DNA of 4,244 nt, taken from IMG/VR virus record IMGVR_UViG_648276659_000008. One strand, 5' to 3'. How positions within the stretch are numbered: position 1 is the first letter of the stretch; every line of letters begins with the position of its first letter. The stretch is from a virus (Duplodnaviria > Heunggongvirae > Uroviricota > Caudoviricetes). Under the pieces are notes generated by a model. That model had not been told where the DNA came from. It ran no database searches and was given only the letters and a program-made list of their open reading frames with translations. Of this stretch, positions 2,211 through 4,244 are shown piece by piece. Made by a program: the position numbers and the translations under genes.

Positions 2211-2227
2211 TATCGCGTCCTCAACAA

Positions 2228-2384
2228 TGAATTTTGTGATGCAGTGCCTGGTGCCTCCAGGTGACGTTAACCAGTTAACAATTAACGCCGGGTTAGTTGA
2301 TGCTCGTTACGCCCGTAAAATACCGCCTTACTGCTTTAACTGTTCCGCGTGCGCATAGCCGCATTCACCGCATCACAAAATTCA
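2228..2384 (-). repeat. 15-bp perfect inverted repeat pair bracketing the dicF-dicB spacer (arms 2228-2242 and 2370-2384)
   Basis: Plus strand 2228-2242 tgaattttgtgatgc is the exact reverse complement of 2370-2384 gcatcacaaaattca. In the minus-strand transcript one arm sits just 3' of the DicF terminator and the other 5 nt upstream of the dicB SD. Confidence 0.7.
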
Positions 2385-2388
2385 CTTT

Positions 2389-2446: not shown

Positions 2447-2781
2447 ATTGATAACAGAGGGCGTTGTAGCGGGGTTGTCACTTAAGCGTATGGTCAACCT
2501 GACAACCCGGTGCATTTTCTGGAGCAATGGAGGAAACCCCAGCCATACTTACCGCCGCGCCATTTCGCGGAGTGCCACAACCGGAAGCGCACGGTCGAAC
2601 TAAATTTAACGACACCGTACAGAGAGACCAATTTCGCCGTGCGCTTTCGCGTTATGCCCTGACTTTTCAGGGACATATCCTTTCAGTAAACTGTCAGTGC
2701 CGGATGCTCACCCGTGTCCGGCGCACGCACTCCACCTGACCAGTGGAGAACTCCTTAATTACCAACCCTCAGGAGGGTGAA

Positions 2782-3060
2782 ATGGATAAAAAGCAAATTG
2801 AGGCCCTGCAATCTATTATTGAAGAACAAGATGAAGCTATCAGGATTCTTTCATATCGCACTGATATGATACTAAATATGCTTTCTGCATTAACGGCTGC
2901 GCTTGGTGGTACAAAAACAAACGTATACCGCGAAGTTGTTATTCAACAGATAGATAAATTTGAAAAAACCATACCAGGTATTAATGCTCATCTTGCAGAA
3001 CAAGAGAAAGACCATGCTCTTATGGCAATTTCTTCAGTAGCTCTCCCGAAAGTTGAGTAG
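2782..3060 (+). CDS. Hypothetical acidic 92-aa protein, antisense to the operon; AT-rich moron-like gene
   Basis: ATG at 2782 preceded by perfect AGGAGG SD (2771-2776, 5-nt spacer). Open frame of 92 codons in AT-rich DNA (about 37% GC by manual count, against roughly 43-55% in sampled flanking segments). MDKKQIEALQSIIEEQDEAIRILSYRTDMILNMLSALTAALGG... is predicted helical with one short hydrophobic stretch. I recognise no family. Confidence 0.6.
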   Translation: MDKKQIEALQSIIEEQDEAIRILSYRTDMILNMLSALTAALGGTKTNVYREVVIQQIDKFEKTIPGINAHLAEQEKDHALMAISSVALPKVE

Positions 3061-3421
3061 TTTTAATTGTTGTTTTGAAATAATCACTGCTTTCACATTT
3101 GAGTGATTTCATGGCAATCCAAATGCGGGCCTCTGTGCCTGCATTTGGTTCCAGTTGCTGTAGACGTTTTGCGTCTTCCAAAAGTAAGGCGATAATGTGT
3201 TTCAGCTTCTCATCATTTGCTTGATTCTTGTTTTCAGGCGAATTCTGTCCGCCGAATAGGCGCTTCTCTTCATACAGACCTATAAAGGCACGACGCACGT
3301 TACCGGATATAGTATCGATGGTTTCCTTTTCTACAGTACTCAGGTCAAGAGTCGCCAGTTGAGAGCGAACCACATTCGCTGCCATTTCCTGGAATGGCAT
3401 TGGTAAATCTTTAAATTCCAT
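3020..3421 (-). CDS. Hypothetical 133-aa protein in operon orientation; its 3' end overlaps the convergent plus-strand gene by 41 bp
   Basis: ATG at 3421 with GAGG SD 7 nt upstream; 22 nt downstream of the ydfC-like stop. MEFKDLPMPFQEMAANVVRSQLATLDLSTVEKETIDTISGNVRRAF..., soluble and helical-looking, no family recognised. The last ~100 nt (3020-3120) are much more AT-rich than the rest of the gene. Confidence 0.7.
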   Translation of the reverse strand: MEFKDLPMPFQEMAANVVRSQLATLDLSTVEKETIDTISGNVRRAFIGLYEEKRLFGGQNSPENKNQANDEKLKHIIALLLEDAKRLQQLEPNAGTEARIWIAMKSLKCESSDYFKTTIKTTQLSGELLKKLP

Positions 3422-4174: not shown

Positions 4175-4210
4175 AAAAAAACCCGCCAAAAAGGCGGGTT
4201 TTTTTTTTTT
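4175..4210. terminator. Bidirectional rho-independent terminator (A7 - CCCGCC aaaaa GGCGGG - T12)
   Basis: Perfect 6-bp GC stem with 5-nt loop, flanked by an A-run on one side and a T-run on the other, so it works as an intrinsic terminator on either strand. On the minus strand it would end transcription coming from a gene beyond the window end (expected immunity repressor, dicA-like). Confidence 0.8.
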
Positions 4211-4244
4211 GGGTGGGGGGGGGGGGGGGGGGGGGGGGGGGGGG
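4211..4244. other. Terminal poly-G homopolymer (gggt then G30); probable sequencing or assembly artefact at a contig end
   Basis: Uninterrupted G run at the extreme 3' end of the window directly after a T12 homopolymer, typical of two-colour chemistry poly-G read tails or a homopolymer-induced contig break. Confidence 0.6.

Follow-up and report, generated by a model that had tools for sequence, protein, structure and literature searches.

The dicF–dicB locus

The stretch of DNA analysed here (4244 nt, referred to as the window) carries a dicF–dicB operon that is read from the minus strand. The 53-nt form of the DicF sRNA was placed at 2446–2394 by Rfam (RF00039) and by a check of the sequence; the RF00039 match itself covers 2445–2394 on the minus strand, scores 77 bits against a gathering score of 48 (E 1.9e-16) and includes the terminator, the stem of which lies at 2431–2395 and the U-tract at 2393–2389. 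Further downstream on the same strand, dicB (62 aa) is encoded at 2210–2022 with its AUG at 2210, and is preceded by a Shine–Dalgarno sequence, GAGGA, at 2222–2218, the feature as a whole occupying 2022–2222 when the latter is included. The region 2150–2460 is 100 % identical to a prophage adjoining ompW in Escherichia coli 118UI, for which the RefSeq annotation gives ydfA/B/C-like genes, dicB, a DUF1482 gene and an exonuclease. The sequence between dicF and dicB (2228–2384) has no ORF of 30 aa or longer on the minus strand, and no tRNA or tmRNA was detected in the window by ARAGORN.

Two further features of the window were noted in passing. An ORF of 92–105 aa lies on the opposite (plus) strand at 2743–3060, with the ydfC-like genes on one side and dicF on the other, and shares its sequence in part with the 3′ end of a 133-aa minus-strand ORF (3020–3421); both are annotated as hypothetical proteins by RefSeq in strain 118UI, and the plus-strand ORF has no counterpart at that position in the Qin prophage of K-12. 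At the far end of the window (4175–4244) a terminator is formed by a perfect 13-bp hairpin bordered by A- and T-runs; it looks bidirectional and is followed by a closing run of about 40 G residues, in all likelihood an artefact of sequencing or assembly.

A long-range helix between dicF and dicB

An earlier note on this DNA, made from the letters alone, had claimed that a perfect 15-bp duplex links the 3′ flank of DicF to the ribosome-binding region of dicB and closes a loop of about 127 nt. The duplex was confirmed, at 2228–2242 and 2370–2384 (TGAATTTTGTGATGC and GCATCACAAAATTCA, respectively), with exactly 127 nt separating the two perfect arms, and proved to be part of a longer structure. 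An inverted-repeat search returned arms of 19 nt (2228–2246 and 2366–2384; 95 % complementary, 119 nt apart), and in the minus-strand RNA the helix comprises 21 contiguous pairs, 2386–2366 with 2226–2246, two of which are G–U. We refer to this helix as P1; its 5′ arm (2366–2386, minus strand) contains the perfect arm 2370–2384 and its 3′ arm (2226–2246, minus strand) the perfect arm 2228–2242. The anatomy described in the note was likewise accurate, in that the first perfect arm lies directly 3′ of the DicF terminator, the U-tract of which ends at 2389, and the second lies 5 nt from the GAGGA of dicB.

The energy of the P1 duplex is −29.9 kcal/mol, and in a model read-through transcript of 266 nt each of the 21 pairs had a pairing probability of at least 0.91; the fold of the surrounding 256-nt region gave a z-score of −3.65. 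Among 200 dinucleotide shuffles, two gave a perfect inverted repeat of 15 bp when any spacing was allowed and one did so when the arms had to lie within 300 nt, so that the length of P1 taken alone is only moderately significant. The evidence from comparison of aligned homologues, which is given below, outweighs these shuffle statistics and is in our judgement decisive. Comparison with K-12 Qin, which the note had proposed as a check, showed the same helix to be kept there, a C-to-U change giving one extra U–G pair.

A folded RNA module enclosed by the helix

P1 is the basal stem of a conserved, pseudoknotted RNA of about 160 nt, which the earlier note had not recognised and which occupies the stretch separating the terminator of DicF from the ribosome-binding site of dicB. 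Reading along the minus strand, the 5′ arm of P1 is followed by P2 (2347–2362; GCGGCUAUGCGCACGC), a hairpin with a bulged A and a conserved loop, CUNNGCG, and then by the 5′ strand of the pseudoknot, CAGUUAA (2336–2342), which pairs with UUAACUG (2278–2272) in the loop of a second hairpin, P3 (2263–2289, with the 3′ strand of the pseudoknot at 2272–2278). Between these two parts lies a variable insert (2292–2335) flanked by two near-invariant blocks, UGCGGUGAAUGCGGCUAAGCGCACGCGGAACAGUUAAA and CCGGCGUUAAUUGUUAACUGGUUAACGUCACCUGGAGGCACCAGGCACCGCA. The last element is P4 (2247–2261; CCUGGAGGCACCAGG), which abuts the 3′ arm of P1 and carries a GGAGG motif. All of these elements are on the minus strand.

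Homologues were collected by scanning IMG/VR with a pattern derived from P4, TCACCNGGAGGCACNNGGC, which returned at least 120 stretches. Scripted sorting of these matches gave two types, namely type S, which is the STnc100 sRNA proper (see below), and type A, which is the kind found in the window. Among the matches listed there were 26 distinct type-A homologues, and in these 92.9 % of P1 cells were paired, with both-sided changes in 11 of the 21 pairs; whole-structure controls in which the partners had been slid gave 32–41 %. The inner pairs of P1 are near-invariant in the type-A matches listed, whereas the outer pairs change in sequence yet stay paired. When P1 was scored on the opposite (plus) strand the figure fell from 92.9 to 85.2 %, and because the difference lies in the G–U pairs, P1 is specific to the transcribed strand. 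The full proposed structure was paired in 96.2 % of cells (alignment A2, the same 26 homologues), as against 32–41 % for the slid controls, with 17 pairs changing on both sides among the matches listed.

The individual elements behave differently across these 26 homologues. P2 is invariant, as is the CAGUUAA/UUAACUG pseudoknot in the type-A matches listed; P3 shows both-sided changes in five of its eight stem pairs; and the insert at 2292–2335 differs among homologues in both sequence and length. P4 is kept in all relatives among the matches listed, a conservation that is partly by construction because the homologues were fetched with a pattern derived from P4. No convincing complementarity between the insert and the dicB ribosome-binding site was seen by eye. 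The GGAGG of P4 resembles a Shine–Dalgarno sequence and spans both stem and loop of the hairpin (2247–2261). A peptide translated from this motif was considered and rejected, as inspection showed that no start codon is conserved at a distance that would suit it.

Relation to STnc100/PasD

The minus strand of the window between 2396 and 2178 matches the Rfam family STnc100 (RF02076) with 31.1 bits (E 4.2e-4), which is below the gathering score of 47, and similar sub-threshold matches were obtained for all six of the type-A copies tested (28–43 bits; E 1.8e-6 to 0.012). The Rfam consensus for STnc100 closes with the same 5′/3′ helix, and P1, P2, P3, P4 and the junction-to-loop pseudoknot occur in the same order and at the same places. 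The resemblance to STnc100/PasD extends to particular motifs, including GUGAAU after P1, the CUNNGCG loop of P2 and, in P4, CCNGGAGGCACCNGG. The stem of P2 is a point of difference, since a reading of the two sequences shows it to be G/C-swapped, that of STnc100 being CCCC...GGGG. On this sequence comparison the module belongs with the prophage sRNAs of the STnc100/PasD family as a divergent relative. In their genomic setting the two kinds differ, however. A typical STnc100 is an independent gene with its own promoter, a 3′ linker and a rho-independent terminator, whereas the module of the window has neither promoter nor terminator of its own and lies inside an operon directly before an ORF, starting after the DicF terminator and running straight into the dicB ribosome-binding site.

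Type S copies scored 52–132 bits against STnc100 among the matches listed, and many of them have a promoter-like sequence that ends 4–5 nt before P1. A terminator was present within 100 nt downstream in 39 of the 59 stand-alone contexts among the matches listed, and a strict promoter match in 12 of the 59 stand-alone copies. RNAalifold, applied to a MAFFT alignment of the stand-alone copies, recovered only P1, P2 and P4, and P3 and the pseudoknot were examined across these copies by an anchored script. The pseudoknot positions of STnc100 relatives (loci L008–L127) hold at least 10 different pairs of complementary sequences, examples in type S being CCAGUC/GACUGG, AAUGAC/GUCAUU, GCCAGGUC/GACCUGGC and ACUGGAUA/UAUCCAGU, and the mean best complementary run among the matches listed was 5.36 within an element as compared with 3.46 between elements. 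The pseudoknot is absent from the Rfam structure line for STnc100, and none was found in the literature examined. In that literature an Hfq-associated, trans-acting sRNA is reported for PasD, EcOnc27 and STnc100 only.

Stand-alone STnc100 copies were also seen in tandem arrays, with a period of about 253 nt in L029, L049 and L102, and among the matches listed they often directly adjoin phage tRNA genes. The array and tRNA loci are L016:2265–3380, L029:342–1038, L102:4349–5513 and L004:1205–2116.

Distribution of the module and length of P1

BLAST against phage genomes showed that the module (window approximately 2399–2226) also occurs without DicF or dicB. It precedes kil in Shigella phage 75/02 Stx, kilR in Rac-SA53 and tciA/TerB in P7 and D6, where it lies inside the tRNA–ban operon, and in Klebsiella phages it lies before sequence that is without annotation. 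The genes that follow it, which are unrelated to one another, are dicB, kilR/kil, tciA/TerB, two other proteins and, in the Klebsiella phages, hydrophobic peptides of 36–67 aa, and their start codons fall 36–70 nt after the beginning of the 3′ arm of the module. The copies of P7 and D6 lie just after a tRNA-Ser/Sec-like gene in the tRNA–tciA–ban operon. Matches in these two phages had raised the suspicion of a C4/P4-CI antisense RNA, which was rejected, as these copies are not in an immI context and there was no match to the Rfam C4 family.

A close parallel to the dicF–dicB layout is the kilS–kilR 5′ UTR of the Rac prophage of K-12 (L128:2223–2503, minus strand), where a DicF-like, terminated sRNA, a module with a long P1 and the gene for a cell-division inhibitor follow one another in the same order, with kilR in place of dicB. 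The annotated KilS, which extends as far as its terminator, is DicF-like and scores 39 bits against the DicF model; kilR starts 41 nt after the beginning of the 3′ arm, and P4 of this copy has a G-to-A change. The publication on this region (PMC8175672) covers KilS only and does not mention the module.

P1 differs in length according to context. Among the matches listed it measures 4–12 bp in type S, most commonly 8, and 8–9 bp in the type-A copies of P7, D6 and one relative, whereas most type-A copies in lambdoid early operons have 14–30 bp, usually 18–30. The E. coli type-A copies have a 21-bp P1 with a weak extension, the copy of Stx 75/02 has 10 contiguous pairs as counted by script, and three Klebsiella copies have a perfect P1 of 20–22 bp with a different sequence, ACAGACCUUGCAAUGCAGUG. 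Of the module, some dicB loci (L081 and L126 from IMG/VR, and two further matches) retain just the 3′ arm and the second of the conserved blocks, with unrelated sequence joining inside the variable insert; these loci are natural variants without a 5′ arm.

RNase III cleavage between dicF and dicB

An RNase III site between dicF and dicB is already known in K-12. Balasubramanian et al. (2016) and a 2022 review (PMC5069750 and PMC9438474, citing Faubladier et al., 1990) report a 72-nt DicF with a 3′ end made by RNase III. Counted from the 5′ end of DicF at 2446, 72 nt leads to 2375, within the 5′ arm of P1 after pair 12 of 21; this placement is by arithmetic from a second-hand figure, and the precision of S1 mapping is about 1–2 nt. 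In Table S1 of Gordon et al. (2017), position 1649470 in the dicF–dicB intergenic region is entered as an RNase III site with 'Known? Yes', with 26 reads in the rnc mutant and none in the wild-type. This pattern may mean that the interior of the spacer is degraded after cleavage rather than accumulating, although expression was very low and the library may not have retained RNAs of such a size.

In its size and in the pairs around the putative cuts the helix resembles a double-cleavage substrate. RNase III accommodates about 22 bp, or approximately two helical turns, and in vivo the two positions lying between the staggered cuts are base-paired, as a rule with one G–C or more (PMC6212723); P1 with its 21 pairs is of this size, and with a 2-nt 3′ overhang the pairs between the putative cuts would be G2376–C2236 and U2375–A2237, in agreement with the rule to the extent that the second-hand 72-nt figure is exact. 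The suggestion in the earlier note that a long-range helix in the polycistronic RNA serves as an RNase III substrate is therefore supported by the published 72-nt end and by site 1649470; it is right, and its agreement with the published K-12 data makes it largely not new. The accompanying suggestion that this cleavage frees DicF holds for the reported 72-nt form, which owes its 3′ end to the enzyme, but not for the main 53-nt form, the 3′ end of which comes from termination.

A separate RNase III site upstream of DicF gives rise to the 5′ end of a 190-nt precursor (PMC10448788). By arithmetic this end would fall at approximately 2583, in the 3′ arm of a minus-strand hairpin at 2582–2649. The 13-bp stem of this hairpin contains a single mismatch (92 % complementary) and closes a loop of 42 nt; the fold z-score is −3.29, and the arms are conserved in K-12. 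With the upstream end carried by this hairpin, DicF would be flanked by two RNase III stems.

A proposed processing pathway and its alternatives

Our current working hypothesis, which we think probable, is that the duplex is the P1 of a folded, STnc100-like module and is cut by RNase III in transcripts that have read through the DicF terminator. In the early-left operons of lambdoid phages P1 would have been lengthened to about two helical turns, a size suited to RNase III. On read-through of the terminator the enzyme would cut P1, and cleavage of the 5′ arm after 2375 would yield the published 72-nt DicF. RNase III can nick one strand only; by the 2-nt 3′ overhang rule a matching cut in the 3′ arm would fall between 2236 and 2235. 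Were both cuts made, the dicB mRNA would be separated with a 25-nt leader, and an RNA of about 139 nt (2374–2236) would be released that retains a P1 of 9 bp (pairs 13–21) with a 2-nt overhang, which is the P1 length of stand-alone copies. Insofar as the second-hand 72-nt figure is exact, the cut after pair 12 coincides with the boundary between the nearly invariant inner part of P1 and its variable extension. This coincidence of the cut position, a 9-bp remainder of stand-alone length and the boundary of conservation is our chief reason for reading the extension as a processing signal.

A different emphasis, which we consider rather unlikely as the principal role of P1 although it overlaps with RNase III excision and the two are not mutually exclusive, is that P1 mainly controls dicB in cis. 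The stem, together with weak pairing between the U-tract and the Shine–Dalgarno sequence, would hide the ribosome-binding site, RNase III would set the translation or half-life of the message, and the enclosed RNA would be only a scaffold. In the thermodynamic model the Shine–Dalgarno sequence is indeed mostly paired (unpaired probability 0.04–0.10 for four of its five bases and 0.6 for the fifth), and the unpaired probability of the dicB AUG rises from 0.02 in the uncut RNA to 0.39–0.91 after the putative cut. The constant position of the module, always 36–70 nt before a gene start, and the fact that several of these genes (dicB, kil/kilR) encode cell-division inhibitors also fit such control, and there are precedents for RNase III cleavage in a 5′ UTR shifting expression in either direction (PMC5371410). 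However, the occlusion rests on U–G and U–A pairs with a probability of only 0.36–0.50, and it is not conserved, the Shine–Dalgarno sequence lying outside the helix in the kil/kilR copies. Moreover, a simple occluding stem leaves unexplained both the near-invariant core of about 100 nt with its covarying pseudoknot and the existence of stand-alone copies equipped with a promoter and a terminator.

It is also conceivable, but in our estimation improbable, that P1 is a mere closing stem of an STnc100-like RNA and that its cleavage by RNase III is incidental turnover. P1 is present in all family members among the matches listed, as expected of a closing stem, and the presence of spacer reads in the rnc mutant with none in the wild-type fits simple degradation. 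Against this stands the dichotomy in length, which makes incidental turnover less likely: a P1 of about two turns is found in most copies from lambdoid operons, in two unrelated sequence versions, whereas copies with their own promoter have 4–12 bp. The location of the cut where the invariant inner P1 gives way to the variable outer part, as far as it can be derived from the published length, argues in the same direction.

We regard as very improbable the idea that the module is a cis-acting antiterminator like put of HK022, allowing read-through into dicB and later genes. Modules are present in the leaders of both early and late phage operons, several type S copies follow promoter-like sequences that by eye resemble phage late promoters, and prophages of the Qin/Rac type need read-through for the expression of kil and dicB (PMC5793797). 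However, put RNA as described in PMC9378689 is about 70 nt long, with two stem–loops arranged in a V and no closing helix, and this architecture sets it apart from a module of four helices and a pseudoknot, so that an identity with put was rejected; in addition, the module lies after and not before the DicF terminator, and 39 of the 59 stand-alone copies among the matches listed have a terminator of their own within 100 nt downstream.

Finally, arms that are the terminal inverted repeats of a Correia/ERIC-like MITE inserted upstream of dicB would account for the size of about 160 bp, for the inverted repeats themselves and for the occurrence of the same module in many unrelated contexts, and transcribed Correia elements are RNase III substrates, but this origin is barely credible and was rejected because the arms covary, their pairing is restricted by G–U pairs to the transcribed strand, and both the orientation of the module and its distance from the start codon that follows are fixed. 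The arms are moreover the least conserved part around a near-invariant interior, the opposite of what is seen in a MITE; they measure only 4–9 bp in relatives, and no flanking target-site duplication was noticed in passing.

Returning to excision of the module by RNase III, we put forward a broader proposal much more tentatively. The dicBF operon may contain, in the dicF–dicB spacer, a third gene for an RNA. This RNA would be a divergent, pseudoknotted representative of a widespread phage superfamily, STnc100/PasD; in lambdoid early operons it would be excised by RNase III by means of a purpose-built extension of P1, and it would have its own role, tied to the kil, dicB or tciA genes that it precedes. 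The same would apply to the kilS–kilR spacer and to the Klebsiella prophages.

Comparison with known systems and significance

The RNase III site of dicBF in K-12 Qin is the nearest known system, as it concerns the same locus and helix and, by the published length, places the end of the 72-nt DicF in the 5′ arm. The window nevertheless comes from a different prophage, the one by ompW that is identical to that of 118UI, and has a different variable insert. A more distant precedent is provided by the operons for rRNA, in which long-range stems around 16S and 23S are cut on both strands by RNase III and the enclosed RNA is freed; there the enclosed RNA is 1.5–2.9 kb in length, as compared with about 140 nt in the window, where release would have to follow from the second, putative cut. 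In the early region of T7 and the N leader of lambda, RNase III stems create new mRNA ends and can alter downstream translation or stability. These sites, unlike P1, are formed by local, small-looped hairpins of about 20 bp and enclose no conserved pseudoknotted RNA.

Three points are new with respect to the literature searched: the helix represents an extended P1 belonging to a divergent, pseudoknotted RNA of the STnc100 type, this module lies upstream of dicB, kil/kilR, tciA and other genes, and the length of P1 differs systematically between embedded and stand-alone copies. Over 35 years of study of DicF and DicB the intervening sequence has been treated as a spacer. The known RNase III cut now gains a structural basis, a helix of two turns whose second arm lies 5 nt from the dicB Shine–Dalgarno sequence and which encloses a relative of an abundant, functionally uncharacterised family of prophage sRNAs. 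If excision takes place as proposed, a single RNase III event would set the fate of the 72-nt DicF, of the enclosed RNA and of the dicB mRNA; if it does not, the site would be an ordinary processing site that is already on record.

One further feature of the putative products was noted. After the putative double cut, the 19-nt 3′ tail of the 72-nt DicF (2375–2393) would retain its complementarity to the freshly generated start of the dicB leader (2218–2235), with a duplex energy of about −10 kcal/mol. The long form of DicF could stay annealed to the dicB mRNA through this complementarity, including weak pairing of the U-tract over the Shine–Dalgarno sequence.
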